DNA of 64,000 nucleotides from a virus, in the IMG/VR virus record IMGVR_UViG_3300032309_001546, positions 32,001 to 96,000 of that record; one strand, written 5' to 3'. Of the stretch, positions 881-61,762 are shown piece by piece; within the stretch, counting starts at the first letter, position 1; each line of letters starts with the position of its first letter. Under the pieces are notes generated by a model. The model saw only the letters and a program-made list of their open reading frames with translations, ran no database searches and had not been told where the DNA came from. The position numbers and the translations under genes were made by a program.

Positions 881-1987
881 CTATTTTAGTATTTCATTAG
901 CGATTTTAGCTAACGCAGTTTTTCTAAATAAAACTGGCTGTTTAATCCCCATGGACTTTAGCCATTCTTTTAATTCAATAGGATTTTGCTCTTTATGATT
1001 GAGCAATCCATATCTCTTACAGATATACTCTTTTTCTAAAGGTAAAAGATTATCTAGTACCGAAAGAAAACTCAAGCAAAACGTAACATGATCCATGTTC
1101 ATATCTATTGCTTGGAGATGTTCATCTTTCTTCTCACGATCTACGATGTCAGTCATAGGATCTTCAATCAACGCATGTTCATTATTGTACATTGCTATTT
1201 GATTGTATGGAGTATAGCTATAGATAAAACTAAAAGCATGAGAGACGTTGCTTTCTTTCATCTTAGTTAATTTAGCTAGTTCACTAACTGTCTTATGAGA
1301 GTAGGGAACATTGTGTCTTCTAATTGCTCCTAGGACTTTAGTTATATCAATTGTCAGGTGGACTGGCAAGCGAATTAATCTAGCCTTGTTACTTAAGGCG
1401 CGGGTAATCTTTTGCTTCACCCACCAAGTAGCGTAGGTTCCTAGCTTAACATTCTTGTTAGGATCATAACGGTCGATGGCATATAGAAATCCAAATACTC
1501 CCTCTTGGATAAGGTCATCCACAGACAGGCCTTTACCAGCATAACTGTTAGCAATCTTAAGGATAAGGCGAAGGTTATGAGCAATAAGAGTTTCTTGTAG
1601 TTCTTTGAATATGTCGTCATAGGGCATAATTCCTATAAGGTAATTAAGTTCTTCTTTCTCCGCGACAAGAAGACCATGAGTAATGTCATCATTATCTTTT
1701 GCTAATTTTTCATCAACAATAGACAATCGATCTTTCATGTTTGAGAATTGTTGCTTCAGATAGAAGTACTTGCAAGCAAGACGATGCATTTCTGCATCTT
1801 TCATTCTGGGATGGTTTTTGATATATTCGCTAAGATAAGCAATGCTATCTTTTTCCATGCCATATATAACTGAAGTGGATTCATTCTTAACATGATGATC
1901 GTATGTTAGACTTGTTTTCTTTCTTCGATCAGGAATTATAATATCTATCTTAACTTTGGGAGTTACGCTATTCGGATTCTTGTTCAT
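881..1987 (-). CDS. sigma70-family RNA polymerase sigma factor
   Basis: HNLRLILKIA, DDLIQEG, DRYDP, TYATWWVKQ, RLIRLPVH = regions 2.1-3.0; region 4 divergent. Confidence 0.9.
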   Translation of the reverse strand: MNKNPNSVTPKVKIDIIIPDRRKKTSLTYDHHVKNESTSVIYGMEKDSIAYLSEYIKNHPRMKDAEMHRLACKYFYLKQQFSNMKDRLSIVDEKLAKDNDDITHGLLVAEKEELNYLIGIMPYDDIFKELQETLIAHNLRLILKIANSYAGKGLSVDDLIQEGVFGFLYAIDRYDPNKNVKLGTYATWWVKQKITRALSNKARLIRLPVHLTIDITKVLGAIRRHNVPYSHKTVSELAKLTKMKESNVSHAFSFIYSYTPYNQIAMYNNEHALIEDPMTDIVDREKKDEHLQAIDMNMDHVTFCLSFLSVLDNLLPLEKEYICKRYGLLNHKEQNPIELKEWLKSMGIKQPVLFRKTALAKIANEILK

Positions 1988-3155: not shown

Positions 3156-3195
3156 ACTAGCCTCTGTACGAATATAAGAGAATATTTTAATCAAG

Positions 3196-3268
3196 CTCTG
3201 GCTATAGGATTTGAACCTATGACCTAGAAATTAACAGTTTCCCGCTTCTACCACTGAGCTAAGCCAGA
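3196..3268 (-). tRNA. tRNA-Asn(GTT)
   Basis: Cloverleaf TCTGGCT/AGCCAGA acceptor, GGAAA-CTGTTAA-TTTCT anticodon arm, ATAGG-TTCAAAT-CCTAT, discriminator G. Confidence 0.9.
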
Positions 3269-4863: not shown

Positions 4864-7278
4864 TTACTTTATTAAGGTAATTTTTCCGACTGGGCGAATC
4901 CTTAAGAAATCATCTTTCTTAGTTGCTTTGTAGGAGAAAAATAATAGGGAACAATAGTCAAGCTTTTCTTTCAGTTCTTCGTATTGATCTGAGAACAGCG
5001 TGACTTCTGATATAGAAGATAAATCTTCGATTGTCAATGTTGCCATTAATTTTCCTTTTGATTTACCGCTTTTGATTTGCTGTTCTTTAATATGAGATAC
5101 CGCGACGAGCAGATTGCCTTCGTTGCTATTTGTCTCATCAATATCTTCTATCTGATTAATTAAGATTCCGGGTGGAGTCTTAGTAATATAAGATAGTGGA
5201 TGGCGACTAATAAAGAACTTACAATACTCTGATTCCCACTTAACAATTTGCAGTGGGACTTTATAGTCAGACGTTTTCTTGATAGATTCTAGGTCAGGGA
5301 AAGTAGGCTGATCAGGAACTTTAAGAACTAATGGCTTCTTAGGTCTTGGTTCTGAATACACTTTCTTACCATCTGAGTCTATACTTAAACTAATTACGCC
5401 TGCCTTTAATCTTGCAGACCAATCGTCGAGCAAGGCGGGATAAGCATCTACTTCCTTGTTACGCTCAAAGGCTTGAACTATTCTTGTTTGATAGTTTTCA
5501 ACCTTTGTATAGTAATCAAAGATATCAGAAAGCTTATCTACAAGCTTGACTCTGTCGTAGCCAAAGCTATCGAATGCGCCGACCTTTGCAAGTATACTAA
5601 CAACACCAGAATTAATCTTTGTGCGATTGATTCTAGTAAAGAAGTCAGCCATGCTTGTAAAAGACTTGCGACCGCGTGCCTTAAGTATAAGGTCACTAGC
5701 TTTGTTACCGATGCCATTGATCATGCCAAGGCCAAACAAGATAGTATTGTCATCCAACTTAGTAAAACCAATATCACTATTGTTAATACTAGGTGGAAGA
5801 ATGTTGTAACCCATCTGGCGATACTCGTTGATATATCTGACTAGCTTCTCAGGCTTACCACTTCTGACAGTCATTAGCGTAAGCATAAAGTCTGTAGGAT
5901 AGTAAGTCTTAAGATAAGCATTGAAGTAAGTAATGAAGGCATAAGCAAGAGCATGACTCTTATTAAAACCATACTCAGCAAATGCTGCAATGACATTCCA
6001 AATACGAGTTGCCTCTCCCATATCAATCTTATGAAGACGAGCACAGCCATCTACAAAAAGTGTGCGATATTCTGCCATCAATGTAGCATCTTTCTTGCCC
6101 ATTGCTTTTCTAATCTTATCAGCCTCTTGGAGTGTTACTCCTGCAAGTATCTGACAAGCGGCCATAATCTGTTCCTGATAAATAAGAACACCGCCGGTCT
6201 CAGCAAGTACATCATCAAGTAATGGATGTAACTTATTCTGAGTCTGACGAGTCTTCTTATAGTCAATGTAGTCCTGAAGCAGACCTGAGTCACGAGGACC
6301 AGGACGATTAAGAGCTGAGAAAACTGCAAGATCCTGGACACTCTGTGGCTTGAGATCGGCTACAAGTTTTAGTAGATAAGTCTCTTCCATCTGGAATAAG
6401 CCAGCTGTGAATCCTTTATTGATTAATTCAAACACATTGGGATCATCAGTAGGAACTTCTTCCTCTAGCCACTTGAGTGACTTACCAATACGCTTACAAG
6501 TAAGATCGTTAATTGTAAGGCAATCGATTCTAAGAATGTCGAACTTAATAAAGTTCATTTTCTCTAGAGTTGGACCTTCCCATTGGGTAAGATTGAACCA
6601 GTCTGCGCCTTCAGTCTTGCTCTTCCGGATTGGAATCATCTGATCTACTGGACTTGTGCCAATAAGAACTGCACTAGCATGAACGCTAACTTCCTTTGCT
6701 TGTCCATCTACTGGTCCGCAAAGGCTAAAGATATCTTGATTAGCTTCTACAATCTTTTTGATGTGTTCGCTATTGTCTTCGATTAGTTCTTTATAAGTTA
6801 CATACTTGCCACGGTGACTTTCAGGCAAGCTGTCAGCTAACCGTTCCGCATCGGCAATAGTTCTATATGTGCCATCTGCATGCTTAAGTAACTTAGTGAA
6901 AGCTTTAACGCTTGTCTTAAGAGACCAAGGCTTATAGGTAGATACACGAAGAACACGATCATGACCATACTTAGTTTGCAGTGCCTTGATTAGATCATCA
7001 GCACGAACATTACAAAAGTCAGTATCGATATCCGGGCCTTCGCCATCAACATGATAAGTAACACGCTCATCCGGATTATAAGTGTCAGACAAGCCAAGCG
7101 CATATAGTAATGCAGAGTTACTTTTATTAGCAAGTTTTGCTTTAGACTCAAAGGCCTTGTTGATAAAAGCTAGAGTTTCATCGGTAAGATACCTGACCTC
7201 AAAGTCCAAGTAGTCTTTGCTTATTACATTTAATCTATCATCTGAATAGAATTTATTAAGGTTTTTCTTGTTGATCAT
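4864..7278 (-). CDS. dnaE: DNA polymerase III alpha, C-terminal part (palm Asp, fingers, HhH, OB)
   Basis: PDIDTDF, SVHASAV, KFDIL, GLFQME, ALNRPGP, YQEQIM, YGFNKSHA, C-terminal OB fold. Confidence 0.93.
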   Translation of the reverse strand: MINKKNLNKFYSDDRLNVISKDYLDFEVRYLTDETLAFINKAFESKAKLANKSNSALLYALGLSDTYNPDERVTYHVDGEGPDIDTDFCNVRADDLIKALQTKYGHDRVLRVSTYKPWSLKTSVKAFTKLLKHADGTYRTIADAERLADSLPESHRGKYVTYKELIEDNSEHIKKIVEANQDIFSLCGPVDGQAKEVSVHASAVLIGTSPVDQMIPIRKSKTEGADWFNLTQWEGPTLEKMNFIKFDILRIDCLTINDLTCKRIGKSLKWLEEEVPTDDPNVFELINKGFTAGLFQMEETYLLKLVADLKPQSVQDLAVFSALNRPGPRDSGLLQDYIDYKKTRQTQNKLHPLLDDVLAETGGVLIYQEQIMAACQILAGVTLQEADKIRKAMGKKDATLMAEYRTLFVDGCARLHKIDMGEATRIWNVIAAFAEYGFNKSHALAYAFITYFNAYLKTYYPTDFMLTLMTVRSGKPEKLVRYINEYRQMGYNILPPSINNSDIGFTKLDDNTILFGLGMINGIGNKASDLILKARGRKSFTSMADFFTRINRTKINSGVVSILAKVGAFDSFGYDRVKLVDKLSDIFDYYTKVENYQTRIVQAFERNKEVDAYPALLDDWSARLKAGVISLSIDSDGKKVYSEPRPKKPLVLKVPDQPTFPDLESIKKTSDYKVPLQIVKWESEYCKFFISRHPLSYITKTPPGILINQIEDIDETNSNEGNLLVAVSHIKEQQIKSGKSKGKLMATLTIEDLSSISEVTLFSDQYEELKEKLDYCSLLFFSYKATKKDDFLRIRPVGKITLIK

Positions 7279-7576
7279 AATCGTCCAATAAACAATGTTT
7301 AAGAAATACTTGTCTGAAAAGATTTAAAGTTTCCTTTTTCTTCTCAGAGTCACTTGTCCAGTAATGACGAAAAAATAAATACAAAAAAGTAAAGAATGGA
7401 ACTTTATAGATCCAACCTAATTTTTCATGCCAAGTTTGAGTATGGTCTAGCGTAAAACTTTTTACTGGAGAAAAAGTCTCAGTTTCTTTGTTCCAAGTAT
7501 ACTTCTCTTTAAAAACTTTTCTGTAAGATAACTTCTCAGGTGTATATACTATAGACTTTTCATTAGACATTTTCAA
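7256..7576 (-). CDS. hypothetical protein between the two dnaE halves; one hydrophobic segment
   Basis: ORF overlaps stop of dnaE-N and start of dnaE-C; WIYKVPFFTFLYLFF. Confidence 0.6.
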   Translation of the reverse strand: MKMSNEKSIVYTPEKLSYRKVFKEKYTWNKETETFSPVKSFTLDHTQTWHEKLGWIYKVPFFTFLYLFFRHYWTSDSEKKKETLNLFRQVFLKHCLLDDYDQQEKP

Positions 7577-8846
7577 GCTCTTTAATATCTTCTGAGTAGT
7601 CTAAAGTAATTCGGACTCGACCAGGATTGAGAAAGCGCTCGAACAGCAGACCATGTTTAACAGGATCAAGATGCTTAGCTGTGATTCCTAGTGACCATGA
7701 GATCAAAGATCCACCACCAGAACCACGCGCTGGGCCAACAGGTATACCCATATCCTTAGCTAGGCTAACATAGTCTTGAACGACAAGGAAATAGGAACTA
7801 TACCGTGCCTCGTCAATGACTTGGAACTCATATCTAATTCTATCCTTGTAGGCTTTAGGGACATCAGCCCAGCTCTTTACGCCAAGCCGAGATATAAGAC
7901 CAGCCTTAGCCTTCTTAAGAAGCATTAGGCTTGTCCCCTCAGGCGTCATTCCTTCAAGCTGAAGATTCGGTGCCTTAGTTACTCGCTCAAAGTATGAGCC
8001 ATCTACAAGATCTGCTACATGCTGAGTATTAGTGATTGCTTCATGTGGTAACTGCCAGTCATCACAAAGAGTCTTTGCGAACTCTGCATCATACATCCAA
8101 GCATTATGATCTTGAACTTCATATGGCATTGTGTCTGGAGTCTTATGCATGCTCACACACATAACATAGCTACGCAACTTGTACTGATCTTGGTTCTGAT
8201 GATGAGCATCAGCTGTAAGTACAAGAGGAATATTCTTGCGTTTGCTTAGATCAATTAGATATTGATTGTAACCATACTGCTTTTCAACATTATTATGCTG
8301 AAGCTCTAAGAAGAAGCTGTCGTCGCCGACCGCCTCCTTAACTTCATCACACCATCTATCTATCTTTGCATGTTCACCCCAGTGCCAATACTTAAAGCAC
8401 TGACTACTGATACAAGTACTAGTAGCAATTAAGCCTTTAGCGTGTTGCTTAAAAGTATCTAGATCGATACGAGGATAGCGATAAAAGCCATCTTCATATG
8501 AATACTTAGTAAGCTTCATTAAGTTCTTATAACCTTCTTCGTTCTTAGCAAGTAATAGGAAGTGGCCATTGTTAACTGCTTTCTCGGCTACGCCATTCTC
8601 TGGCATAAAATCAGACTTAGTCTTGGCATCGCCAAAAGCAAGATATGTTTCATTACCAATGATAGGCTTTACGTTAGCAGCACGACAGCCCTTTACAAAT
8701 TCTGGGATGCCACCCATATATCCATGATCTGTCAATGCAACTGCATTCATTCCTCTGGCAGCAACAGTCTTACCCATTTCATCGGCTGGCTGTAAGCCAT
8801 CAAGCAATGAGTAGTAGCTATGCGCATGGAGATGTACCATTCCCAT
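7563..8846 (-). CDS. dnaE: DNA polymerase III alpha, N-terminal part (PHP domain and start of palm)
   Basis: HLHAHSYYSLLDG, ALTDHG, LLAKN, TADAH, GPARGSGGGS, LLFERFLNPGR. Confidence 0.93.
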   Translation of the reverse strand: MGMVHLHAHSYYSLLDGLQPADEMGKTVAARGMNAVALTDHGYMGGIPEFVKGCRAANVKPIIGNETYLAFGDAKTKSDFMPENGVAEKAVNNGHFLLLAKNEEGYKNLMKLTKYSYEDGFYRYPRIDLDTFKQHAKGLIATSTCISSQCFKYWHWGEHAKIDRWCDEVKEAVGDDSFFLELQHNNVEKQYGYNQYLIDLSKRKNIPLVLTADAHHQNQDQYKLRSYVMCVSMHKTPDTMPYEVQDHNAWMYDAEFAKTLCDDWQLPHEAITNTQHVADLVDGSYFERVTKAPNLQLEGMTPEGTSLMLLKKAKAGLISRLGVKSWADVPKAYKDRIRYEFQVIDEARYSSYFLVVQDYVSLAKDMGIPVGPARGSGGGSLISWSLGITAKHLDPVKHGLLFERFLNPGRVRITLDYSEDIKELENV

Positions 8847-8902
8847 ATTATTCTCTCGTTTAAGTTTAAAGATTAATAAAACACCAATAGGCGACAAGGC
8901 TA

Positions 8903-12381: not shown

Positions 12382-13518
12382 TTACTCCTTGTCCGGTGCT
12401 TCCTCAGCGAAAGAAATCTTGCGCTTACGAGACAACGGATATCTGGCATCAAAATGCGCCACACCTAATAGATCACAAAGAGAAGCTCTTGCTCCTGCAT
12501 CGCTTCTAAGGTTTTCAGAAAGATTATTTCTACCTTGAACCTTAAGGCCAATTGCAGGAATCTGTAGCCATGCACCAGCAGCAACGATATGCTTCTGAGC
12601 TAGACCCATAGTAATAAGCGAGTCAACTCGGTCAAGGCCGATACCCCACTTAATGCTAATCTCTACCTCATCCTCAGCACGAGCTGCGCCCTGAGCCTTA
12701 ACAATCTGGACCTTTCTAAGATTCTCTTTGCCATCACCAGGGATAGGAAGAATCTTAAGACGAAGTCTAGCATAATAGCGAATAGCACGACCACCTGTAG
12801 TGATAGTACCACGCGCACCCATTGGAGTAATATTAACTCTCATCTGGTTACTCGTAATAAACGTACAGTCATAGGCCTTATAAGCAGTAGCAAGACGGCC
12901 TAGGACCTTCGAGCTAAGCAAAGCATGCCAACCGATTGCACCATCACCAGCTTCTGCATTAGTATCAGCACTAGCAGGAGGACTAATAGCAGCCCAGCTA
13001 TCTAGAGCAACACATGAAAACATGCCACTGCGAACAAGCTGATCTAGTAACGTAAGAGCTTGCTTGCCATTTTGAGGAAGACTATAAACAAAGCGCTCTT
13101 CGTCTACAGGAACACCAAGGTGTCTTGCATACTCTGAGTCAAAGTTACCTTCCATATCAATGAAAGCAATGCCACGGTCAGGAAAAGTTCTAGCAAAACT
13201 AGCTAGAGCTTCGTACATTAACGTAGTCTTACCAGATGATTCCTCACCAGCAATCTCAATAAAAGTACCACGTGGCCAGCCGGCATTATCACCAAAGCCA
13301 CCAAGTAGACTGTCTAAACAGGGATCACCTGTTGCAACAAAGCTAAATACAGGAAGACTATCTTTGCCAGTGACAAGGATAAGATCTTCGCCGTATTGCT
13401 TTAGCTTACTCATCTTGAATGCATTAAATGTCTTTGCATTCCATGTGCTGGCTCCAGGAGTACTAAAGTTATCTTCATGCTCCCAGTCGCCGTTCACTCC
13501 ATTCATTTCTTCTGACAT
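12382..13518 (-). CDS. recA: RecA/UvsX recombinase
   Basis: GEESSGKTT, FIDME, LDS, NQMR, TTGGRAIRYYA. Confidence 0.92.
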   Translation of the reverse strand: MSEEMNGVNGDWEHEDNFSTPGASTWNAKTFNAFKMSKLKQYGEDLILVTGKDSLPVFSFVATGDPCLDSLLGGFGDNAGWPRGTFIEIAGEESSGKTTLMYEALASFARTFPDRGIAFIDMEGNFDSEYARHLGVPVDEERFVYSLPQNGKQALTLLDQLVRSGMFSCVALDSWAAISPPASADTNAEAGDGAIGWHALLSSKVLGRLATAYKAYDCTFITSNQMRVNITPMGARGTITTGGRAIRYYARLRLKILPIPGDGKENLRKVQIVKAQGAARAEDEVEISIKWGIGLDRVDSLITMGLAQKHIVAAGAWLQIPAIGLKVQGRNNLSENLRSDAGARASLCDLLGVAHFDARYPLSRKRKISFAEEAPDKE

Positions 13519-13749: not shown

Positions 13750-15681
13750 TTATTTAACAGGACAGAATCCGCCTTCACAATCACTAGAGTCAACACTCGC
13801 ATCAAATGAAATACCATTGATTAGCTTAGTTGTTCTAACCAGTTCATTATAGACATCTTCTGTGATTTCTTCAAGAGGAGCTTGCTTGAAACCATGTTCA
13901 GAATGCAATAAGAATGAAAGGCTTTTGTGGTTTAAGGTATAGTTCTCACGAAGGTATTCCTTAACCTGCTCAAGCTCTTCCTTTCTATAATAAATAGTGC
14001 AAGATACACTATTGTCAGACCAGTCTTCCTGAAGTCTCTTGACTACAGCAAGCTGATCAAGGGCTGTCATATCCTTAGCTAGAAGTGTTCCTTCAGGATA
14101 GGCAAATGGAAACTCAGCTACCATAGTTGAATAGTCAAGGCTACCATCAAAGTTTTCTTGATACTCAATCTTATAGTTGTGTGAACGTACCACTTCAATC
14201 AGTGGATGATTAGCAGCAATACGAATACGACGAATAAGATGTCTAGCATATGCAGGATGTGCACCCGGTGTAACACCAGGAAGCAAACTAAGTGTACCGC
14301 TAGGCTTTACGGTAGTAAGTTTAACGCTAACAGGGAATCCCTTTGCAGCGCTATACTCAACATCGTAAGCACGAAGCTCACCATAGACATCTTTAAGCCA
14401 AGACTTTTGTTCATCTGTGGCTTGCAGATAACCAGTTATACCAATACCCATACGCATATGCTTATTGACAATCTCTTCGGTCTCCGAATGATGGCAATGT
14501 AAAGCCAAGCTATGCTTATTAATACGGTAAAGTAGTTTACATACATCAGCCAATTCGGCCGCACTTGTTATATTGGGAAGGAATACTTCTGCAAGACAGC
14601 AAGTCTCAAAGTTAGCAAGGCTCTGTTCTGCACAAGGGTTGTAACCCATGACAGCAGGATCAGGATACTCTGTCTCGCCAAGGCGACCCATAGCACGTGA
14701 AAGCTTAAGGTTGATTAGACCATAAGGCTCTCCTTTGCCTTCGTAACCATCCCAGAACATATCAGGAAGATCATTGATATCGTCACAAGCTACACTATTA
14801 TTGGACATTGCACGCCAGCTGGGAATTGTCCCAAGGTCCCAACGCTTAGCAAGTAGGAACTCAATATCGTCACAGTCTCCAATGGCGATCTGTGCGCTAC
14901 GTCGTACGTTACCAGCTACTACGATGCTGCCAATAATGTTCATGATATCTAGACAATCAACACTGCGTAATTGCTTACCAGCGCGCTTCTCTAGGACCTT
15001 ACCAATATTAGCTATACCTTCACATAGAATCTCAGGACCGCTAGCTACGCCACCAAAGCCTTTGATTGGCGCGCCCTTACCACGGATTAGCTGAGTGCTA
15101 AATGTAAATGTATTCTTCTTGTCTGCAAGGAATGCAGCCTTAAGAGTCTTAGCTAATAGTGCAACCCAACCTTCTCTTGTATCGGACACAATAAAGTCAG
15201 AGTCCCCCTGGTCTCTGCGGGTTGGGCTCTTAAAGTTCTTACGAACCTTAGGAATCTTGTTAATATGCTCACGCTGAATATTGTAGCCAACGCCACAACC
15301 AAGCATAAGCATATCCATTGTCCAAGTAAATGGACGAACGGGATTATCAACAACGGTAAAAGCACAGTTCTGAAGACTTGGAAGACCCAAGTCCTTAACA
15401 GTCCTAGTGCCTAGCTGCCACAGAAAGCGGCCAGCAACGGTACCCTTAAGCTCAAGCATATACTGCCTAAGTCGGGCACGCTCATCAGGCGTAAAGCCTA
15501 CCTTAAGCTGCTTATCACTGGCATTAAGAACACGTTCTACAGTGTCAGTCCATTCCTCGGTCGGACCATTAAGATCAGACTCACTAAGTCGTCTTGCATA
15601 GGTTCTCTTATAGGTAAGATAGCCTACAGTACTCCAGGGCGTTACTACATCTTGTAGCGAAAAATTATTAATATCTGTCAT
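13750..15681 (-). CDS. nrdJ: class II (adenosylcobalamin) ribonucleotide reductase
   Basis: RTYAR, AGRFLW, NCAF, GNVRRSA, NPCAEQ, TTVKPSGT, C-terminal CEGGFCP. Confidence 0.93.
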   Translation of the reverse strand: MTDINNFSLQDVVTPWSTVGYLTYKRTYARRLSESDLNGPTEEWTDTVERVLNASDKQLKVGFTPDERARLRQYMLELKGTVAGRFLWQLGTRTVKDLGLPSLQNCAFTVVDNPVRPFTWTMDMLMLGCGVGYNIQREHINKIPKVRKNFKSPTRRDQGDSDFIVSDTREGWVALLAKTLKAAFLADKKNTFTFSTQLIRGKGAPIKGFGGVASGPEILCEGIANIGKVLEKRAGKQLRSVDCLDIMNIIGSIVVAGNVRRSAQIAIGDCDDIEFLLAKRWDLGTIPSWRAMSNNSVACDDINDLPDMFWDGYEGKGEPYGLINLKLSRAMGRLGETEYPDPAVMGYNPCAEQSLANFETCCLAEVFLPNITSAAELADVCKLLYRINKHSLALHCHHSETEEIVNKHMRMGIGITGYLQATDEQKSWLKDVYGELRAYDVEYSAAKGFPVSVKLTTVKPSGTLSLLPGVTPGAHPAYARHLIRRIRIAANHPLIEVVRSHNYKIEYQENFDGSLDYSTMVAEFPFAYPEGTLLAKDMTALDQLAVVKRLQEDWSDNSVSCTIYYRKEELEQVKEYLRENYTLNHKSLSFLLHSEHGFKQAPLEEITEDVYNELVRTTKLINGISFDASVDSSDCEGGFCPVK

Positions 15682-15732
15682 TTTAAACTCTCTTAAAATA
15701 ATAAGAAATAGAAAGGGGTAAGGAATATCTTA

Positions 15733-16248
15733 TCACTGAGTTTCAAAACCCTCAGAACCTTTTCCAAATGCTTTTAACTCGCTATTAACAGAGTAAGCAA
15801 CACTTTCTAGAACTCGTCTCATACCTATAAGTTGACCCTGAATTCTTTCAAAAAAATCTACTAGGAATGTATGTAATACTTCCTTTGTATTATCATCATC
15901 GAACTCTACATCAAGACTCGCCTGTAGTTGATCTACAGTAAACTTAGGATTGTCTTTCTTAAGTTCTAAAAGCTTTGCAGCTTTACGAGACTTGATTGCA
16001 GAGTGATGAAGATCTCTGGCCAGAACGGCTTGACTGTGCTTGTGATTTACATCACTAAGTAAGTCTGCAATACGTCTAAATTGCTTATAGACGTCCTTAA
16101 CAGTCATATCATCGGGCAAACTTACCCGATAATACTCAGCCCATTCTGTCAGAGTCTTCTTGTTGAAAGAAATAGTATTGACTAGGTTGATATCAGTTAC
16201 GCAGCTTTTCTTTGCAGACTCAACTTTATCTTTATCTATTTCCATCAT
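15733..16248 (-). CDS. hypothetical helical protein (possibly UvsY-like mediator)
   Basis: Coiled-coil character and context only. Confidence 0.55.
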   Translation of the reverse strand: MMEIDKDKVESAKKSCVTDINLVNTISFNKKTLTEWAEYYRVSLPDDMTVKDVYKQFRRIADLLSDVNHKHSQAVLARDLHHSAIKSRKAAKLLELKKDNPKFTVDQLQASLDVEFDDDNTKEVLHTFLVDFFERIQGQLIGMRRVLESVAYSVNSELKAFGKGSEGFETQ

Positions 16249-16255
16249 CTACTCC

Positions 16256-16675
16256 TTAGTCAGTTTCCCACTCGTCTGAGGTGCTAGCCTTGGGCGCAAC
16301 CTTACCAGGTGCGGGCTTCTTCGCAAGATATGCGTCAGGAACACTGCTCTTCGTAGCTGGCTTACCTGCAGCAGGCTTAGCAGCTGACGATGGCGAGCGA
16401 GTCGAACCGCCCGTCTGGCTCTCATACTCATCGACAAGCGCCTGCTTGATGTCAGCAAGGAATTGACCGCTCTCCTTAGGAGCAATAATCGTATCTTCAT
16501 ATGCCTCACCGCGCTTAGCGCTTGGAGCACCAGCAAATAAGCCGTTCTTTCCGTTGACTACCTTCCATCCCTTAAGGATAAGTTCGCCATCATCAGTTAC
16601 AAGGGTTACGTCACCCATAGCGACAACAGGACCAGTAGGATTACTAAGGGGGTTTACACGAACTCTAATTTCCAT
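16256..16675 (-). CDS. spoVG: SpoVG-family nucleic-acid-binding protein with Ala/Lys/Pro linker and acidic tail
   Basis: VAMGDVTL..LKGWKVVNGKNGLFAGAPS..YEDTIIAP. Confidence 0.8.
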   Translation of the reverse strand: MEIRVRVNPLSNPTGPVVAMGDVTLVTDDGELILKGWKVVNGKNGLFAGAPSAKRGEAYEDTIIAPKESGQFLADIKQALVDEYESQTGGSTRSPSSAAKPAAGKPATKSSVPDAYLAKKPAPGKVAPKASTSDEWETD

Positions 16676-17197: not shown

Positions 17198-17746
17198 CTA
17201 TCCTTCGGGTAAATAAGTTATAAATAAGTTGCCATTAGAATGGTTAAAATTATAAGGAATGCCATGTTGGTCCACAGGTTTCATCCCCATTGCTTGAAAG
17301 AAATAGGGATTGTAACCATATGGATCTTTGAATCTACTTAAGTGGTTGCGAAGCTCTCCAGCTACATATGGACTGTTAGTATAGATCCTAAGTTTTGTTC
17401 CTGTCATTAAGCTATTGAATCCTAAGCCCCTAGTATACTGTTTAAGTGCAAGACTTGCAAGTAAAAAAGTAGTCTTAGTGTAAATGTCATAGCCCTCAGG
17501 AAGCAACTCTTCATATTTATAGACAAAGAAATCTGTTTTGTCCATATCTATATTTGGACCTTCGGTGGATCCATATCTATAAATAACCATCTTCTCTGTG
17601 TCATCAAAGAATAGGCCAATATGAGTCCACAAGCCAGATCTATATGGGAAGCCAGGTATCGGATTGAAGCCATATCCAAAAGAAAAGGCTATAGTCCAGA
17701 TATAAGTTCGAATTTTATCTAATACTTTATAATAAAAATTCTTCAT
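17198..17746 (-). CDS. hypothetical protein
   Basis: ORF in co-oriented operon. Confidence 0.65.
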   Translation of the reverse strand: MKNFYYKVLDKIRTYIWTIAFSFGYGFNPIPGFPYRSGLWTHIGLFFDDTEKMVIYRYGSTEGPNIDMDKTDFFVYKYEELLPEGYDIYTKTTFLLASLALKQYTRGLGFNSLMTGTKLRIYTNSPYVAGELRNHLSRFKDPYGYNPYFFQAMGMKPVDQHGIPYNFNHSNGNLFITYLPEG

Positions 17747-17754: not shown

Positions 17755-18282
17755 TTACTTCTTAGGATCTCTTTCGCGCTGTAGATCAAGATGTAGGCCA
17801 GTCATATAGATGCTAGCAGTCCGGCATAGATTGATAAAGATATCCATCTCTCCTGATGTCATTGACGTAGAGATACTATCACCAGCCTCATTGCGCATCG
17901 TAAGCATGTAAGTACCTAGATACTTATCTACGCCACTCTGGAATGTAAGCTTCTTGACATTATCCTCGCTTGCGCCAGGCGGAACGTGAATAAGGTTTAG
18001 AGTTTGACGTTGTGATGTGTCAACCCAGCCATTCATTACACCGTTGTAAAAGCTAAGGATCTGGTAGATATCGTTAATGCCTACGGCAAAAACAATCTTA
18101 TTACCCCAATCAAAGGTGTTATGGCCACCTTCGTTCTTGCCACCAGTTGCACGGGCAAACTGGAGATACACTGCGCCTTCCTTTTCTACTTGCTTACCGT
18201 AGTCACTATCTTTAGTGGTTACTGGAATGTAAGAGATCTGGAGTGCGCTACTTTTCTTGACAATCTGAAATTGCTTTGACAT
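17755..18282 (-). CDS. Whirly-like ssDNA-binding protein
   Basis: KKSSAL, EGAVYLQFA, FDWGNKIVF, LIHVP, SGEM..YMTGL follow plant Whirly motifs in order. Confidence 0.7.
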   Translation of the reverse strand: MSKQFQIVKKSSALQISYIPVTTKDSDYGKQVEKEGAVYLQFARATGGKNEGGHNTFDWGNKIVFAVGINDIYQILSFYNGVMNGWVDTSQRQTLNLIHVPPGASEDNVKKLTFQSGVDKYLGTYMLTMRNEAGDSISTSMTSGEMDIFINLCRTASIYMTGLHLDLQRERDPKK

Positions 18283-18316
18283 TTTTCCTCTTTTGTTCTA
18301 ATTATTTCCTACAATA

Positions 18317-32152: not shown

Positions 32153-33301
32153 TTATTCGTAGTCTCTTAATGCTTTCGCATATGGAAACCTAGGTACCCC
32201 ATCAGGGGTTAGATTGAAATATTGAATAGTTACCTGCTTACCTATAAGTGAATCCTTGTTCTCCCATAGTCTTACAAGATACTCATGAGGGCCCATAATA
32301 TTACTATTAAAGTGGCGACCATCTGACATGACCAGGGTAAATGCCCCAGCCATGCCAGACTTGTTCCCCTCGCCCTCAACAACACCAACAATTTCATATT
32401 CGCTATCGATAAACTTCTTAAGCTTTAGAAGATTCTTACTTCGCTTATTTTCATAAGCAGTATTTCTTCTAAGCATAAGACCCTCATATCCTTCCTTAAG
32501 ATATGCAGTAAGCTTAGCCTGGACTTCTTCCTGGCTGTTTACAGTGTGCGTTTCAACTGTTGTGACATATTTCATGTCGATCAGTTTCATACCAAACGTA
32601 TTGTATTGCTTAAAAAACTTAAGACGATCAATGAAGTTACCATCTACCATGTTGTCGTAGCACCAGAACTGAATATACTTCTTGCTTTCAGCAAGTTGCG
32701 CATCATCAATCTTCTGGCGCTTAACAAGTTCTACAATCCTATTAAAGTTATCTTTAAATTCATGATTGTAAAGTTCACCATCTAGCTGGACATCCGGGCA
32801 CTTCTCAAAGAATGACTCAAGAGCTGAGTTAATATGAGGGCATGAAACAATCTTTTCATTGTTTCTAGTCCACATACCATCCTTATTGATCCTGCATCGA
32901 ATGCCATCGAGCTTAGGTTGAGTATAAGCGGGCCAAGTAATGTCATCTGCATAGTCATCGTAATTCTTAGCGAGCATTACCTGATAGGGTAAAGCCTCAT
33001 CTACATTATCGACAGTCTCAGTATAACCCTTCTTGATCTGTTTATCCCACTTAGCTTTTGCTTCCTTTGCAGCTTGGTCAGCTGCAGTAGTCGCATTCTT
33101 CTTGCCAACATTCATTGGCTCACAAACAGTAGGCTTACTGGTAGTCTTAACACCATCAATATGCCCACTGGTTGTATAAAATGAACCATTACCTAAAACG
33201 GCAATGGTCCATTCCTCAATCTTATTGCCATTTACTTTCTTATAAAGTGTAGGTAAAAAGTAATTAGTTACAACATCATCAACAGTTTCTAGCTCTGCCA
33301 T
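32153..33301 (-). CDS. ATP-dependent DNA ligase
   Basis: MLAK, QPKLDGIR, LDGELY, YEGLMLR, LLKLK, VPRFP. Confidence 0.92.
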   Translation of the reverse strand: MAELETVDDVVTNYFLPTLYKKVNGNKIEEWTIAVLGNGSFYTTSGHIDGVKTTSKPTVCEPMNVGKKNATTAADQAAKEAKAKWDKQIKKGYTETVDNVDEALPYQVMLAKNYDDYADDITWPAYTQPKLDGIRCRINKDGMWTRNNEKIVSCPHINSALESFFEKCPDVQLDGELYNHEFKDNFNRIVELVKRQKIDDAQLAESKKYIQFWCYDNMVDGNFIDRLKFFKQYNTFGMKLIDMKYVTTVETHTVNSQEEVQAKLTAYLKEGYEGLMLRRNTAYENKRSKNLLKLKKFIDSEYEIVGVVEGEGNKSGMAGAFTLVMSDGRHFNSNIMGPHEYLVRLWENKDSLIGKQVTIQYFNLTPDGVPRFPYAKALRDYE

Positions 33302-34350
33302 GCAAAGTAGTCCTCCCAATTAACAAATTCTGGATGATCAGAGAAAATAACATCTTCCTCAAGAAGATTAGAGCATTCGCCCTCGATGATCTCTGCAATA
33401 GTAGTCTGCATTTCTTTGAGTGTCTTGCATGTAACAAGCTCGTCGCGAAAGCGGAACTTAAATGGGTTACCTTCTTCTATCTTAGTTAGAATGTCACCTT
33501 TATTAAGTACAACGCAGGTGACGCCAGACAGGCGAATCGCAGCAATCATCTTATCAAGATTAAGATAATTAACAATTCTTTGACGTCCGGTTGTAATACC
33601 TTGTTCCTTGCCAATTCTGCCAATCTCAGCAAGAACTGGATCCTGCATTAAACTAACAGGAAACATAGGATCTGCCCCACTCTTAGTGTCGTACATCTTA
33701 CCAATGCCAATAATGCGAGTAATATCCATAGGCGAGAAGCCAAGTGAACAAGCATTATAAGGCAAAGTAGAACTACTAGTAACGTAAGGATAAGATCCAT
33801 GATCGATGTCTAGCCAGACACTCTGCGCGCCTTCTGCAAGGATAGAACCAAAAAGTTTCTCATCCCAGATCCACTTGGGATCAAGAACTTCAGCTGCACG
33901 AATTCCTTTACGCAACATCTTATCTGAGTAGCACGGAGCAATACCTTGCCCTGTAGTCCCAAGATGCGAAAGATAATTAGTGTCATAGCTAATGTGATCT
34001 TGAGTAATTACATGAGCCTTAGGTGAAACCTTAACAAGACTCGTATCAAATCTATTAACTTCTAGATAAGCAATCTCTGCCATGAACTTGCTAATATTGA
34101 TTACACAAGCAGGGCCGATAATGCTAGGAACACCGTGGAATACACCACTAGGGATAAGATGAGTCTTGTACTGCTTACCATCCAAGTAAACAGTATGACC
34201 TGCATTAGGGCCGCCGTTAAAGCGACAGACAAAGTCATAGTGTTGGTAATTAACCAATGAACTAACGACCTTGCCCTTGCCCTCGTCACCCCAAGCAAGC
34301 CCAACAACAACATCTACTGTATCAATCTCACGAGAATTAGCAAACTGCAT
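33289..34350 (-). CDS. purA: adenylosuccinate synthetase (short form)
   Basis: WGDEGKGK, GGPNAGHT, EGAQ, YPYVTSS, TTGRQR, NKGD. Confidence 0.9.
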   Translation of the reverse strand: MQFANSREIDTVDVVVGLAWGDEGKGKVVSSLVNYQHYDFVCRFNGGPNAGHTVYLDGKQYKTHLIPSGVFHGVPSIIGPACVINISKFMAEIAYLEVNRFDTSLVKVSPKAHVITQDHISYDTNYLSHLGTTGQGIAPCYSDKMLRKGIRAAEVLDPKWIWDEKLFGSILAEGAQSVWLDIDHGSYPYVTSSSTLPYNACSLGFSPMDITRIIGIGKMYDTKSGADPMFPVSLMQDPVLAEIGRIGKEQGITTGRQRIVNYLNLDKMIAAIRLSGVTCVVLNKGDILTKIEEGNPFKFRFRDELVTCKTLKEMQTTIAEIIEGECSNLLEEDVIFSDHPEFVNWEDYFAWQS

Positions 34351-36993: not shown

Positions 36994-37030
36994 TCTAGTA
37001 GAATCTCCAGTGATAAAGTAAATAAATAAG

Positions 37031-37112
37031 TGGGAGTAGATGGACTCGAACCAACGTAGACCGAAGTCGGGGGATTTACAGTCCCCTGCAATTGCCACTA
37101 TGCGATACTCCC
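37031..37112 (-). tRNA. tRNA-Tyr(GTA)
   Basis: GGGAGTA/TACTCCC acceptor, GGGGA-CTGTAAA-TCCCC, long variable arm. Confidence 0.92.
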
Positions 37113-39378: not shown

Positions 39379-39426
39379 AATATATCTCCTTTGTTACAGA
39401 TTAATTTTCAAATAACTAATTATAAG

Positions 39427-39498
39427 TGCTTCAAGTAGGATTCGAACCTACGCAATCTAGTTTACAAAACTAGGGCTCTGCCACTGAGCTATTGAAGC
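39427..39498 (-). tRNA. tRNA-Thr(TGT)
   Basis: GCTTCAA/TTGAAGC, CTAGT-TTTGTAA-ACTAG. Confidence 0.92.
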
Positions 39499-39499
39499 A

Positions 39500-39574
39500 T
39501 GGTCGGGATGACAGGGATCGAACCTGCGACATCTTGCTCCCAAAGCAAGCGCGCTACCACTGCGCTACATCCCG
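39500..39574 (-). tRNA. tRNA-Pro(TGG), CCA encoded
   Basis: CGGGATG/CATCCCG, CTTGC-TTTGGGA-GCAAG. Confidence 0.95.
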
Positions 39575-39604
39575 ATTAACAATAAGATACCGTACGAGTA
39601 CCAG

Positions 39605-39677
39605 TGCGACGGGAGGGGCTCGAACCCTCGACTGACGGATTAAAAGTCCGCTACTCTACCAACTGAGTTACCGTCGC
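39605..39677 (-). tRNA. tRNA-Lys(TTT)
   Basis: GCGACGG/CCGTCGC, GCGGA-CTTTTAA-TCCGT. Confidence 0.95.
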
Positions 39678-39698
39678 AAAATAGCAAACAAAATAAAG

Positions 39699-39779
39699 TG
39701 GACCGGGTGGGGGTCGAACCCACATAGCTTGCGCGTTCCGTTATGAGCGAAATTCCGTAACCAATTCGGAGGCCAGTCC
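39699..39779 (-). tRNA. tRNA with CAT anticodon, probably Ile2; atypical (12-nt variable region, C8)
   Basis: GGACTGG/CCGGTCC, TCCG/CGGA D stem, TTTCG-CTCATAA-CGGAA, GTGGG-TTCGACC-CCCAC; directly downstream of tilS. Confidence 0.8.
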
Positions 39780-55954: not shown

Positions 55955-56080
55955 CATAAATAAAGTACATTGAAGACTATATACTAGTAAAGAGAGATAG
56001 ACAGAGTAATAGGATATACAGAAGAGATTAAGGTCTAGACAGTAAGGAGTATACATGTAGCATGACAAGTCATGTCCTGC

Positions 56081-56425
56081 TATACCCTGCGTTATACCTT
56101 GCTATACCCTGCAAATACCCTGCAGATCCCCTTAAAATACCTTGCTATACCTACCCCGCTCCTACAAACTATACCAATATACCTTGTCCTCGCGTAAGCC
56201 CGTCTTATACCTCTATATACCCCTATATGCCAAAAGCATACAAGGCTATTCTCTGGACTCTTTTTGAACAAGTTCTTATACCCCTATATAGTAAACTTAT
56301 ATACTTGTATGTATACTTGTATACCCCTATGGGGCAAAAGCTGCCTTCATGAAACTCTGGATATCCATCGTAAAACTCTGGACTCTTTTTGGATCTTAAA
56401 AATGACTCTTATCTCTGGACTCTTT
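56081..56425. repeat. iterated WATACC and CTCTGGA(CTCTTT) motifs
   Basis: About a dozen WATACC in 56081-56325; CTCTGGA at 56251, 56355, 56376, 56413. Confidence 0.8.
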
Positions 56426-56488
56426 ATGGTCTCAGAATCCTGGCCCGGTTGCTTGCATGTATAGCCCTTTATAGCTATATCCTCCTTG

Positions 56489-56518
56489 AAAAGAAAAACC
56501 CTGCTGTTAGGCAGGGTT
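56489..56518 (-). terminator. intrinsic terminator
   Basis: AACCCTGC-loop-GCAGGGTT then TTTCTTTT. Confidence 0.75.
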
Positions 56519-56531
56519 CTCTTCCTTGAGA

Positions 56532-56921
56532 TTAGATCTCTTGGGCATGAGAGTGACGAGTCTCTCGATTAGGACTGTTAGCAGCACGGCGGCGCTTGAT
56601 AGCCTCCAACTTTGCAGCTAGTTCATTTTCCTCACGTTCAGCATTCAAAGCATCCAACTTACGCTGGTACTCACGCTGAGCACGGGTCGTCTTTACTTCC
56701 TCAACAGGCTTACTAGTAGATTGAGATGCTGCGGGTCTAATACCCTCAACCTTCTCAGTTACCATATTACTACCCTTCTTGAGGATAGGACCAAACAACC
56801 CCATGAAGATAGCAGGGATTACTAGAAGAACAGTACCGAAGATACCCCAAAGGGCACCTGCTGCACCTGCTGCTCCTGCTTTGGCAAGAAATGTTCCGCC
56901 TTCTGCGCCTACATCAGCCAT
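56532..56921 (-). CDS. membrane protein
   Basis: N-terminal TM, C-terminal coiled coil; GGAGG RBS. Confidence 0.7.
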   Translation of the reverse strand: MADVGAEGGTFLAKAGAAGAAGALWGIFGTVLLVIPAIFMGLFGPILKKGSNMVTEKVEGIRPAASQSTSKPVEEVKTTRAQREYQRKLDALNAEREENELAAKLEAIKRRRAANSPNRETRHSHAQEI

Positions 56922-56923
56922 GA

Positions 56924-57238
56924 TTAGCCCTCCACTCGATAGAATGCACCTGCATTAGGTGCGTGAATCTGAATAGCGCGATAACCTGGATGAAGCGGCT
57001 TACCCGTTGCATCCTTCTTGTGTCGCTTTAGAAATAGAGGAAGGTTCTTGAAGCCCAAGGTGAATCCCTCGGCACCAATCTCCCCATTGCTCCATACCTC
57101 GATATCATCACCACCCATCTTGCAACGAGTAACGACGAAGCTACCAGCCTCTGTACGAACTCGTGCTACAGTAGGAACTGCAGGGTTAGATGAACCAACT
57201 CGAATCACACCACTCGCGGTCAAAACATCACTCATCAT
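56924..57238 (-). CDS. hypothetical protein
   Basis: Start MMSDVL with GAGG RBS; track ORF extends through tRNA. Confidence 0.7.
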   Translation of the reverse strand: MMSDVLTASGVIRVGSSNPAVPTVARVRTEAGSFVVTRCKMGGDDIEVWSNGEIGAEGFTLGFKNLPLFLKRHKKDATGKPLHPGYRAIQIHAPNAGAFYRVEG

Positions 57239-57283
57239 ATACCTCTCATGTTGTACTCTAGAATATAGAGCGTTTGGGGAAAG

Positions 57284-57358
57284 TGTGCCCGACTGGACTT
57301 GAACCAGTGACCTACGGCTTAGAAGGCCGTTGCAACTATCCAACTGTGCTACGGGCAC
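57284..57358 (-). tRNA. tRNA-Arg(TCT)
   Basis: GTGCCCG/CGGGCAC, ACGGC-CTTCTAA-GCCGT. Confidence 0.92.
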
Positions 57359-57386
57359 GCAGCCTAGGTTTTACCCTAGTAGTTGT

Positions 57387-57881
57387 TTAGAAGCCGTCTC
57401 CATCCTCGAAGACAAAGTTGTCAGCAGGATTTCCGGCAGTCTGACGACGACGCACAGTAGTACGAGCCACAGCACGGACTGCAGGAGTTGCCACAGGACC
57501 AGCCGCCTTCATCTGCTGAGGAGCTGGAGTAGAAGCAGGTGCTGCTTCCTTGGTTGGCCGGCGACCATAGTTGATCTCATTCGCGACAACTTCAGTGATG
57601 TAGCGGGTCTCACCCTTGCTCTCATACTGACGAGTCTTGATTCGACCCTCGATCTCGGCCTCACTACCCTTTGACAGGTACTTGGCAGCATTCTCTGCAG
57701 CCTTACCCCACACAACAACACGATGCCACTCCGGCTCACTGACCGTCTCTCCCGCCTTATTTACGTACTCGTAATTAGTGCAGATAGACAAAGTAGCCCG
57801 GCTACGGCCAGTTTCAGTCGTAGACAACTTGGGATCATCACCAAGGAAACCACGAAGCTCAACACGATTCTTATTACGCAT
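57387..57881 (-). CDS. ssb: single-stranded DNA-binding protein
   Basis: NRVELRGFLGDDP, EWHRVVVWGK, YLSKG, EGRIKTR, TEVVA, acidic tail. Confidence 0.93.
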   Translation of the reverse strand: MRNKNRVELRGFLGDDPKLSTTETGRSRATLSICTNYEYVNKAGETVSEPEWHRVVVWGKAAENAAKYLSKGSEAEIEGRIKTRQYESKGETRYITEVVANEINYGRRPTKEAAPASTPAPQQMKAAGPVATPAVRAVARTTVRRRQTAGNPADNFVFEDGDGF

Positions 57882-57952
57882 CTCTCATCTCAACTTACCC
57901 ATCCACTGATGGTAATGTTTATTTCAATAAAGCATAATACTCACGATAAAAA

Positions 57953-57968
57953 GCGAGCGCAGCGAAGC
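57953..57968 (+). repeat. GC-GA-GC-GCA-GC-GAA-GC hairpin motif upstream of ssb
   Basis: Member of the GCGCAGC family. Confidence 0.8.
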
Positions 57969-58327
57969 TAATGTATGCCAAGTACAAAGATCTGAAACAT
58001 TGTACTAACAATGCTCAAAAATGTAATGGCAAAGTATAAAACGAAGATCCCACTGATAATGTCCCACAGTGTAGATTTCTTCATGCTAGGAAAAACACTA
58101 TCTCTGAAAGCACATTTGTGAAGAGTACCTTCAGTATCCAAGCTATTCCAATCAACGTAATGATTCTTTGCATTATTACCTCGTAGCTAGAGCCAAGATA
58201 GCAATAGCAGGCCAGATCAGACTAGCCGCAGTATAAGCAAACACAAACCAGACAGGAACCACAACGCTTGCAGTTCCATTGATGTGGCTCATAGTGAAGG
58301 ATACAGTACTCATAAGAATTGACTTCA

Positions 58328-58534
58328 TTAGATCCCCTTTCTGGTTTCGGCGTCTCCGATGTTGACGAACTTTGCTCCCTTGAATTTGCGGTACGAGGCG
58401 ATGAGAAGGCCTGGGACTCTCTGTACCCAGATGCCACCTTGTGCTTTGATTCGCTTTGCGATCCGCCTTGCAGCGTATCGATTAGGCGTTTCATGCACGG
58501 AAAGACATCCACTAGCAACAAGTACACTGTACAT
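58328..58534 (-). CDS. small basic protein
   Basis: AGGAG RBS, TAATG coupling. Confidence 0.6.
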   Translation of the reverse strand: MYSVLVASGCLSVHETPNRYAARRIAKRIKAQGGIWVQRVPGLLIASYRKFKGAKFVNIGDAETRKGI

Positions 58535-58731
58535 TAGATCTCCTGGTTGCGGATGATTTCAATTTCTTGACTGATCCGGATATCCCGGACAGCAAGCATC
58601 AAAGTACTGATACGGTCAACTCCCCAGACTGCTTCCAGCATTGCAATCAAGTATGCAATGTTCTCTGCATTTCGGTAGTTGATGTCAAAAAGACGGTTAT
58701 CGACTTTATCCATAGGATCTACGTTTTCCAT
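58534..58731 (-). CDS. hypothetical protein
   Basis: GGAG RBS. Confidence 0.6.
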   Translation of the reverse strand: MENVDPMDKVDNRLFDINYRNAENIAYLIAMLEAVWGVDRISTLMLAVRDIRISQEIEIIRNQEI

Positions 58732-58740
58732 GTTCTTCTC

Positions 58741-59022
58741 CTACTTGATGTCTTCAGCGCGGGCGATTGCCTCTGCTGCGAGAATGATGCATTCAAGGTT
58801 CTCGAAGTTCTTTTCAAGATACTCGATGCGGTTACGGGCCTTACGAGATCCTTCCTTGATTGCGAAGTCTTCATTCCACAGAGGAGCGGTGTCCTGAAGT
58901 AGATTGAATGCACAACGGTACTCTTGGAGCTGGGCCTTTCGACTTTCACGGGTATTAGCCGTAAGGTTGATGTAAGTCAGGTGATGAAAAGTATCGGTAA
59001 TCAGACTCTTTGTCTCGTACAT
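58741..59022 (-). CDS. hypothetical protein
   Basis: GGAGG RBS. Confidence 0.65.
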   Translation of the reverse strand: MYETKSLITDTFHHLTYINLTANTRESRKAQLQEYRCAFNLLQDTAPLWNEDFAIKEGSRKARNRIEYLEKNFENLECIILAAEAIARAEDIK

Positions 59023-59500
59023 TTATTCCTCCGAGGAATTGTTGTTGAACTTGAACTTGCGGCATCCATTCTTAGATTCCTCCTTCCGGGGGTCTCCATG
59101 GTTGCCGTTCTTGAAACCACCGTAAGCAAGCGTCATTGCGGCGCTATCACGACGAGGGACAAACTTATCTTTCTTTACAGTCTTTGACATTGTAACCTAC
59201 AGGTATAAGTAGCTAGAATCAAAGAACATCACTGCTGCGATGATCCAGAAAGCAACGCCGCCATAAAAACTGGCGACGAGAAGGGTTGTTTCAGCAAGGT
59301 TGAAGGTGTGCTCTTCAAACCGCTCCTTGTCAATGTTGAATGTAATCTTCATGACCAGTAACTCCAGCGAAGGATGTCAATGAGGACCATGAATGCGCAA
59401 GCAGCGAATCCAAGTCCACTAAGACAGAAAAAGAACAACGTGCAGAATTGCCAATTGTTCACAGTAACAGCATACTTACCAACTTGAATCTTGTGCATTC

Positions 59501-59647
59501 TTATTCTCCTTCAGGAAACAAACGAAAGAACTTATCCTCTGCCCAGTCTTCAAATGAGAAGTCCAGTTCTCGGTCAAGACCAAGTTCCGCAGCTTCAATC
59601 AACAAGTTATCCTCATTCTTGTCAAACCACTCTTCAAAGTCAATCAT
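59501..59647 (-). CDS. small acidic protein
   Basis: Start MIDFEE with GGAGG RBS. Confidence 0.6.
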   Translation of the reverse strand: MIDFEEWFDKNEDNLLIEAAELGLDRELDFSFEDWAEDKFFRLFPEGE

Positions 59648-59672
59648 GGTGTCCTCCTTAGGACATAAGGGT

Positions 59673-59858: not shown

Positions 59859-59861
59859 GAC

Positions 59862-60068: not shown

Positions 60069-60097
60069 GTTGTCCTCCAAGGACATAAGGGGGAAAG

Positions 60098-60165: not shown

Positions 60166-60252
60166 TGATTCAGCCTTTGTGGCTACTGGACATGACACCC
60201 AATAGGTTATCCTACCAACGGGCAGGTTACAGGCTGTTGACCTATTGGACTA

Positions 60253-61743: not shown

Positions 61744-61762
61744 TAATACTGTGTAGCGGAGT

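Follow-up and report, generated by a model that had tools for sequence, protein, structure and literature searches.

Does a large tailed phage encode a true member of the Whirly family, and, if so, what would such a protein do for the phage? Plant reviews and a 2026 biochemical reconstitution call Whirly plant-specific or plant-unique (PMC9070903; 10.64898/2026.10.24.761589). The question is raised by a gene in a stretch of 64,000 nucleotides (positions 32,001 to 96,000 of IMG/VR record IMGVR_UViG_3300032309_001546), which we call the window and to which all coordinates refer unless another contig is named. The gene lies on the minus strand at 17755..18282 and encodes, from ATG to stop, a protein of 175 amino acids (aa). 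It is defined here by its open reading frame (ORF), Pfam family PF08536, a profile of its relatives, an AF2 model searched with Foldseek, and dN/dS ratios. A sequence-only reading had called the product Whirly-like from six motifs that follow those of plant organellar Whirly proteins, and had staked that identity on a match to the Whirly profile and a match to the Whirly fold. Both searches were carried out, and both returned matches.

All of the motifs are present in the order claimed: KKSSAL (residues 9-14), EGAVYLQFA (35-43), FDWGNKIVF (57-65), LIHVP (97-101), VKKLTF (109-114), and SGEM (143-146) followed by IYMTGL (158-163). The plant motifs given for comparison are also correct, as the profile alignment to potato p24 (1l3a) pairs them with YKGKAAL, REGMVMLQFA, YDWSRKQVF, FFHDP, RKVLKV, KAEF, and PYLLGW. 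The protein matches PF08536 at 32.9 bits (gathering cut-off, 23) over model positions 2-131 of 136, and a six-frame search of the whole genome returned the same single match. A profile built from 59 aligned relatives, each of which matches PF08536 individually, finds the PDB chains 1l3a, 4koo, 4koq, 4kop, and 3n1h over positions 5 to 152 of 153, with E values of 5.6e−21 to 3e−17; these chains comprise potato p24, Arabidopsis WHY1, WHY2, and WHY3, and potato WHY2. Chance cannot account for matches of this strength: the single sequence against Pfam gives an E value of 6.8e−8, and the family profile gives 5.6e−21 with the Whirly chains of the PDB. Four columns are invariant among the 59 relatives (G36, W59, K62, and H99), all of them within the motifs, and the near-invariant residues F65, D71, K110, G144, E145, and G162 align to plant Whirly motifs.

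The ORF amounts to a bare Whirly domain, which extends from residue 4 to about residue 163 and carries no transit peptide, no N- or C-terminal extension, and no acidic (autoregulatory) tail. Its pI of 7.8 is near neutral rather than strongly basic, a point against the explanation that we favor below. PHROGs holds no family for it, and it has no match to the single-stranded DNA-binding protein (SSB) family PF00436. A putative Shine-Dalgarno-like AAGAGGA, read from the letters, stands at 18286..18292 on the minus strand, 4 nt 5′ of the ATG. The gene is real and constrained. Comparisons with six related phage records show 40 to 59 synonymous and 0 to 3 nonsynonymous differences, and comparison with a 92%-identical relative shows 73 synonymous and 20 nonsynonymous differences; the dN/dS ratios of 0.005 to 0.03 indicate strong purifying selection.

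The AF2 model, computed with the family alignment (pLDDT 93.2, pTM 0.85), consists of two repeats of four strands and a helix (E4-H, E4-H), with strands at residues 4-49, a helix at 69-83, strands at 94-141, and a helix at 143-161. In a Foldseek search against the PDB, the top 16 matches are all plant Whirly proteins (TM 0.66-0.75, E ~1e−10), with a TM of about 0.7 to both 1l3a and 4koo, at a sequence identity to plant Whirly structures of only 15 to 23%. The runners-up are well behind: MRP1/2 at TM 0.5 (E ~1e−3) and Pur-alpha at TM 0.37. These observations, all made in silico, leave us almost certain that the ORF is a genuine member of the Whirly family with the Whirly fold of two β-β-β-β-α repeats.

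The protein is also probably a tetramer, as far as structure prediction can tell. The four-copy prediction reached an ipSAE of 0.92, versus 0.00 for the best control, a result that may reflect likeness to, or memory of, the plant tetramers that have been solved. At least 84% of contacts recur between the four-copy runs, and partner pLDDT is at least 87. The predicted interface lies on helices 69-86 and 142-173. In calibration, 20 of 30 proteins with solved structures of one-chain pairs attained the mark, as did 1 of 23 with solved single-chain structures. Because plant Whirly tetramers have been solved, we read the four-copy pass as likeness rather than proof.

Among viral proteins, the best structural match in the library is A0A6J5NR37 (34% identity, TM 0.64/0.78, E = 7.5e−11), whereas jumbo-phage entries in the same fold search are weak (TM <0.45). 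The second-best viral match, BFVD entry A0A172Q074 (TM 0.52/0.71, 21% identity, E = 1.4e−5), is a 121-aa protein of the cultured Acinetobacter phage vB_AbaM_ME3, which could offer a culturable system for phage proteins of the Whirly fold.

How widespread are such proteins? When 1.84 billion cluster representatives were searched exhaustively with phmmer, 75 relatives emerged at E ≤ 1e−3, nearly all of them stand-alone proteins of 120 to 180 aa, and the relatives are almost entirely short metagenomic proteins. In this search, the family comprises no fewer than 70 clusters at 50% identity. All relatives for which DNA was fetched (L002 to L012) are on phage-like DNA, and some relatives are on contigs of 170 to 199 kb. 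Searches of nucleotide collections with members of this locus returned nothing: tblastn of the Whirly query and of relative P0015 against 50,697 GenBank phage records, a set that may exclude the genome of the record itself, gave no match at E = 1e−3, megablast of 20 kb of the window against GenBank phage records gave none, and a related-locus search with relative P0009 found none. PF08536 matched none of 14 control genomes and, among 401 sampled bacterial genomes of one phylum, gave two matches. One of the two is on L012, a contig collinear with phage genomes. The other, at 1138-1962 (plus strand) of contig L014 in genome G028, belongs to a 274-aa protein whose residues 122-180 match the first half of the Whirly model at a marginal 23.4 bits (cut-off, 23); this could reflect either the distant kinship of a cellular protein or mere chance.

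The description of the gene as phage-encoded is borne out by its record, which carries genes for a baseplate wedge and a major head protein and is that of a tailed phage. The record is 145.9 kb long and rated 84% complete, near-identical records reach 174 to 176 kb, and near-identical DNA is present in lake-water metagenomes of many studies. The Whirly gene belongs to a leftward block that encodes a sigma-70-like protein, a metallophosphoesterase, DnaE (in two genes), PhoH, RecA, a class II ribonucleotide reductase (RNR), a 171-aa helical protein, a SpoVG-like protein, proteins of 125 and 182 aa, Whirly, proteins of 155 and 165 aa, ThyX, and UDG. The further claim that the gene is in a replication cluster holds as well, since it is surrounded by split DnaE, PhoH, RecA, class II RNR, ThyX, and UDG in a DNA-metabolism block of one direction, with no terminator-like site in the intergenic gaps from 21366 to the RNR gene. 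Sigma-70-like promoter sites numbered 34, versus 29.6 in shuffles, and are thus not in excess.

Within this block, on the minus strand throughout, the 182-aa ORF (17198..17746) begins 8 nt past the Whirly stop. Its product has no Pfam or PHROG match and no BLAST partner in the distant syntenic phages L010 to L012 described below, and an RNase H-like lead from atlas features is weak (0.87; bar, 0.9). No annealase was recognized beside Whirly, where the flanking 155-aa and 182-aa proteins are both without Pfam or PHROG matches. The gene for the SpoVG-like nucleic-acid-binding protein (16256..16675; Pfam SpoVG, 29.0 bits, just below the cut-off of 29.6) is followed by that for the all-helical 171-aa protein (15733..16248), which has homologs in the corresponding position of L010, L011, and L012. 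Atlas features (0.93) had proposed the 171-aa protein as a UvsY-like mediator, a candidacy not supported by matches to Pfam, PDB profiles, or the UvsY HMM, of which there were none; its AF2 model is poor (pLDDT 54.8). Farther on are the class II (B12-dependent) RNR gene (13750..15681; Pfam RNR domains) and the gene for a RecA-type recombinase (12382..13518; Pfam RecA, 142 bits), the proposed functional partner of Whirly. The SpoVG-like, 171-aa, and 182-aa genes are represented among RNA contigs of two metatranscriptome runs from lakes. Of the Whirly gene, these contigs contain only a 40-nt piece with loose ends, the absence of contig cover being uninformative either way.

Several other features of the window were recorded. 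The DnaE-type PolIII alpha is split into two minus-strand genes (4864-7278 and 7563-8897), one for the PHP and the first part of the NTPase domain and the other for the rest of that domain, the finger, and HhH, and a 106-aa ORF (7256-7576) is found between them. An adenylosuccinate-synthetase homolog (33289-34350, minus strand; Pfam, 260 bits) has as its best PHROG the PurZ-type "2-aminooxy adenylosuccinate synthetase" family (E = 8e−59); it could point to 2-aminoadenine (Z) DNA or be merely a PurA-like auxiliary gene. The seven tRNA genes of the window (Asn, Tyr, Thr, Pro, Lys, Met, and Arg; 3195-3268, 37030-37112, 39426-39779, and 57283-57358) include four in one cluster. The G+C content climbs from about 38 to 40% to 46 to 53% at 56000-64000, and past the window end there is a 2265-aa ORF that is overlapped by long ORFs on the opposite strand.

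We examined genomic context in the near-identical phages L002 to L008 and in the distant L010 to L012, and the results below apply to these. In the distant IMG/VR phages L010 and L011, Whirly proteins that are 32 to 34% identical to that of the window are encoded in the same arrangement: Whirly, a small gene, SpoVG-like, a 179- to 202-aa homolog of the 171-aa protein, and class II RNR. The same Whirly-to-RNR order is found in L012, a 112-kb contig (PBLS01000003.1, 111,807 bp) filed in a metagenome-assembled genome (MAG) as Magnetovibrio sp. One end of L012 is collinear gene by gene with L010 and L011 (PhoH, Whirly, SpoVG-like, RNR, and others, at 40 to 74% identity), and the contig probably represents a phage genome that ended up in a bacterial MAG through binning. 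Given that the syntenic proteins are only about 23 to 35% identical to those of the window, the arrangement of the Whirly gene has survived deep divergence. The RNR counterparts in all three are 33 to 35% identical, and in L010 the RNR gene is followed by RecA (15206-16264). SpoVG-like genes (L010, 8843-9232; L011, 8918-9322; L012, 1947-2354) are conserved close to Whirly in four phage lineages, with proteins 24 to 29% identical, and the L010 counterpart scores 37.6 bits on Pfam SpoVG. Proteins of the SpoVG family reportedly bind both DNA and RNA. The nearest conserved neighbor of Whirly is the SpoVG-like gene, not RecA, and gene proximity in a phage early/middle block is weak evidence for a partnership between Whirly and RecA.

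What, then, could the protein do? The overall explanation that we consider best, and moderately probable, is that it is a Whirly-family tetrameric binder of single-stranded DNA (ssDNA) that assists RecA recombination of the phage, where both the binding and the role are argued from homology and context. Four Whirly copies, held together by their helices, would form a whirligig tetramer, which would bind ssDNA without sequence preference along the β-sheet edges, as potato WHY2 does. Homology makes it likely that the phage protein binds ssDNA. It would then be a second, specialized ssDNA binder and a working partner of the phage RecA, the gene for which lies 4.2 kb downstream in the same string. 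By coating resected or displaced strands, it would favor RecA strand exchange and suppress microhomology-driven mis-annealing in recombination-dependent replication and repair. For this RecA-accessory role, which is suggested by gene context and plant biochemistry, we put the chances at slightly short of even.

The plant biochemistry comes from two sources. Tetramers of plant WHY2 bind ssDNA and guard against error-prone microhomology-mediated repair, and the second lysine of KGKAAL is required for the cooperative 24-mers of WHY2 (PMC3245945). According to a 2026 preprint, complete strand exchange by plant RecAs is promoted by Whirlies and not by the mitochondrial SSBs of the canonical type (10.64898/2026.10.24.761589). 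The phage equivalent of KGKAAL is K9-K10-S11-S12-A13-L14, in which the position of the critical plant lysine (K67) is taken by a serine (S11); among the 59 relatives, this column holds K in 18 and S in 15. Because the K67-equivalent residue is not a lysine here and is a lysine in only 18 of the 59 relatives, the higher-order plant mechanism may not apply to the phage protein.

Of the alternatives, the one that survives best, though we regard it as improbable, is that the Whirly-fold tetramer binds RNA, acting on phage mRNAs or large non-coding RNAs and controlling their stability, translation, or localization. MRP1/2 and the jumbo-phage protein ChmC are RNA binders with the Whirly fold (PMC11077065, PMC7549692). 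Maize WHY1 is in part another example. MRP1/2 are moreover the next-best fold match after plant Whirly, and the conserved SpoVG-like neighbor would suit such a role, as would the metatranscriptome contigs over the SpoVG-like and 171-aa genes, which show only that the block is present in RNA libraries. However, in sequence as well as in fold, the protein is far nearer to the ssDNA-binding plant Whirlies (TM ~0.7, E = 1e−10) than to MRP1/2 (TM 0.5, E ~1e−3), and the adjoining genes are those of DNA metabolism, not of translation or RNA processing.

A little less probable still is a transcription or nucleoid factor that binds melted or hairpin promoter DNA, or coats and compacts phage DNA, and thereby switches expression. 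Phage N4 is said to use SSBs at its promoters, which would be comparable to the promoter version of this proposal. Plant Whirly provides a precedent, since it was discovered as a transcriptional activator that binds ssDNA and is also a nucleoid architectural protein (PMC9070903), and the window encodes a sigma-70-like protein. The earliest description of potato PBF-2 was likewise of this kind. Yet the phage gene sits inside a nucleotide and recombination block, no DNA-sequence-specific element or partner is evident, and the K67-equivalent lysine that supports 24-mers of the compaction type is absent.

The location of the Whirly gene within a replication block could also suggest that the protein is the main replicative SSB of the phage, in place of an OB-fold SSB. 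The genome, however, has a canonical OB-fold SSB gene elsewhere (57387..57881, minus strand; PF00436, 96 bits; phrog_44, "single strand DNA binding protein"), the product of which ends in an acidic/aromatic C-terminal tip (…FEDGDGF). Such a tip is missing from the Whirly protein, and the LGW motif is directly followed by the end of the protein in most relatives. No T4 gp32-type or Enc34-type SSB was found in the genome. Because the separate OB-fold SSB carries a partner-recruiting acidic tip, we rule out Whirly as the SSB of the fork and consider the replacement of the OB-fold SSB very unlikely. The phage thus carries RecA, a bacterial-type SSB, and Whirly, a trio that is also that of plant organelles. 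Equally slight is the prospect of a counter-defense decoy or sponge for single-stranded nucleic acids of the host or its defenses (e.g., retron msDNA or Shedu/Menshen signals): although two antiphage systems, Shedu and Menshen, use Whirly/sPC4-like domains as sensors (PMC12065111; 10.1101/2023.08.10.552793), no defense or anti-defense gene was recognized beside Whirly here, and strong purifying selection together with deep synteny with core DNA-metabolism genes fits housekeeping better than an arms race.

If the protein is a recombination-associated ssDNA binder, as we favor, where did the plant family come from? That a phage Whirly bears on the origin of organellar DNA-maintenance proteins, as the sequence-only reading held, is reasonable. 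Phage-like sources have already supplied organelles with other proteins, namely the single-subunit RNA polymerase, the primase-helicase Twinkle, and polymerases of the PolI-like type. The phmmer search with the phage query reaches green-algal Whirlies directly (Mesostigma and Edaphochlamys), and a third homolog search yielded Chlamydomonadales alone. In a quick maximum-likelihood tree (86 rows, unrooted, and without land plants), the algal sequences group together (8 rows, 2 label changes) among several metagenomic clades, with weak deep branches (34 to 90 SH-aLRT). The phylogeny that had been proposed as a check therefore yields the algal grouping but, given its weak deep branches, its lack of a root, and the absence of land plants, no direction of gene transfer. 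We advance as a speculative and rather unlikely scenario that Whirly is an old phage family of recombination ssDNA binders, which the green lineage acquired from a large tailed phage. If so, the phage trio of RecA, SSB, and Whirly would be the ancestral unit of the plant organellar recombination system.

The Whirly family itself is already known, and databases already label such proteins: UniProt has automatically named A0A6J5NR37, a 141-aa protein of an uncultured Caudovirales phage, "Whirly transcription factor." Our full-text literature search found no paper that describes a phage Whirly recognized at the sequence level or that describes or tests A0A6J5NR37. A diverse family of minimal Whirlies in large phages alters the plant-specific picture and opens the origin of an organellar genome-maintenance factor to phylogenetic tests. 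The phage proteins offer small, soluble versions free of targeting peptides for structural and biochemical work, and the natural set of RecA, SSB, and Whirly lets one ask what Whirly adds beyond an OB-fold SSB. Should they bind ssDNA as their homology suggests, large freshwater phages would have a further class of ssDNA binder, the second, in their recombination toolkit.

Compared with the plant organellar set (potato PBF-2 p24/StWhy1, StWhy2, and Arabidopsis WHY1-3; 1l3a, 3n1h, 4koo, 4kop, and 4koq), the phage protein shares PF08536 and the two-repeat β4-α fold over the full domain, and the motif order EG..L.FA, DW..K..F, H, K.L, GE, and G[WL], and is predicted to form a helix-mediated tetramer; it likewise co-occurs with RecA and a bacterial-type SSB. 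It differs in being encoded by a phage rather than the nucleus and in having KKSSAL for KGKAAL, with a serine at the lysine of the 24-mers (PMC3245945). The features of the land-plant Whirly subgroup, namely the KGKAAL lysine, a transit peptide, and a C-terminal extension, are absent from the phage ORF. Because green-algal Whirlies also do not have the full KGKAAL motif (PMC9070903), KKSSAL excludes the protein from the land-plant subgroup, not from the Whirly family. The green-algal Whirly-like proteins (Chlamydomonas "Pbf-2," Edaphochlamys, and Mesostigma), which the phage query reaches at a phmmer E value of about 2e−4, are longer than the phage protein (230 to 470 aa), with targeting or extra regions. 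A0A6J5NR37, in turn, is likewise a minimal phage Whirly.

Trypanosome MRP1/MRP2 and Pur-alpha have the general β4-α repeat fold in common with the phage protein (PMC7549692) but are more distant structurally (TM 0.50 and 0.37), show no sequence match, and bind RNA or adopt other oligomeric states. ChmC of the Chimalliviridae (PhiPA3 gp61 and PhiKZ gp67) is a homotetramer of the Whirly-type fold that binds single-stranded nucleic acid, with a preference for RNA, and serves to export mRNA from the phage nucleus; its sequence shows no detectable similarity to Whirly, so that it was recognized by structure only, and it has β3-α repeats and a disordered, N/G-rich tail (PMC11077065). Unlike ChmC, the protein encoded in the window has four-strand repeats and no long disordered tail in its AF2 model, belongs to the Whirly family at the level of sequence, and is found in a context of DNA metabolism.
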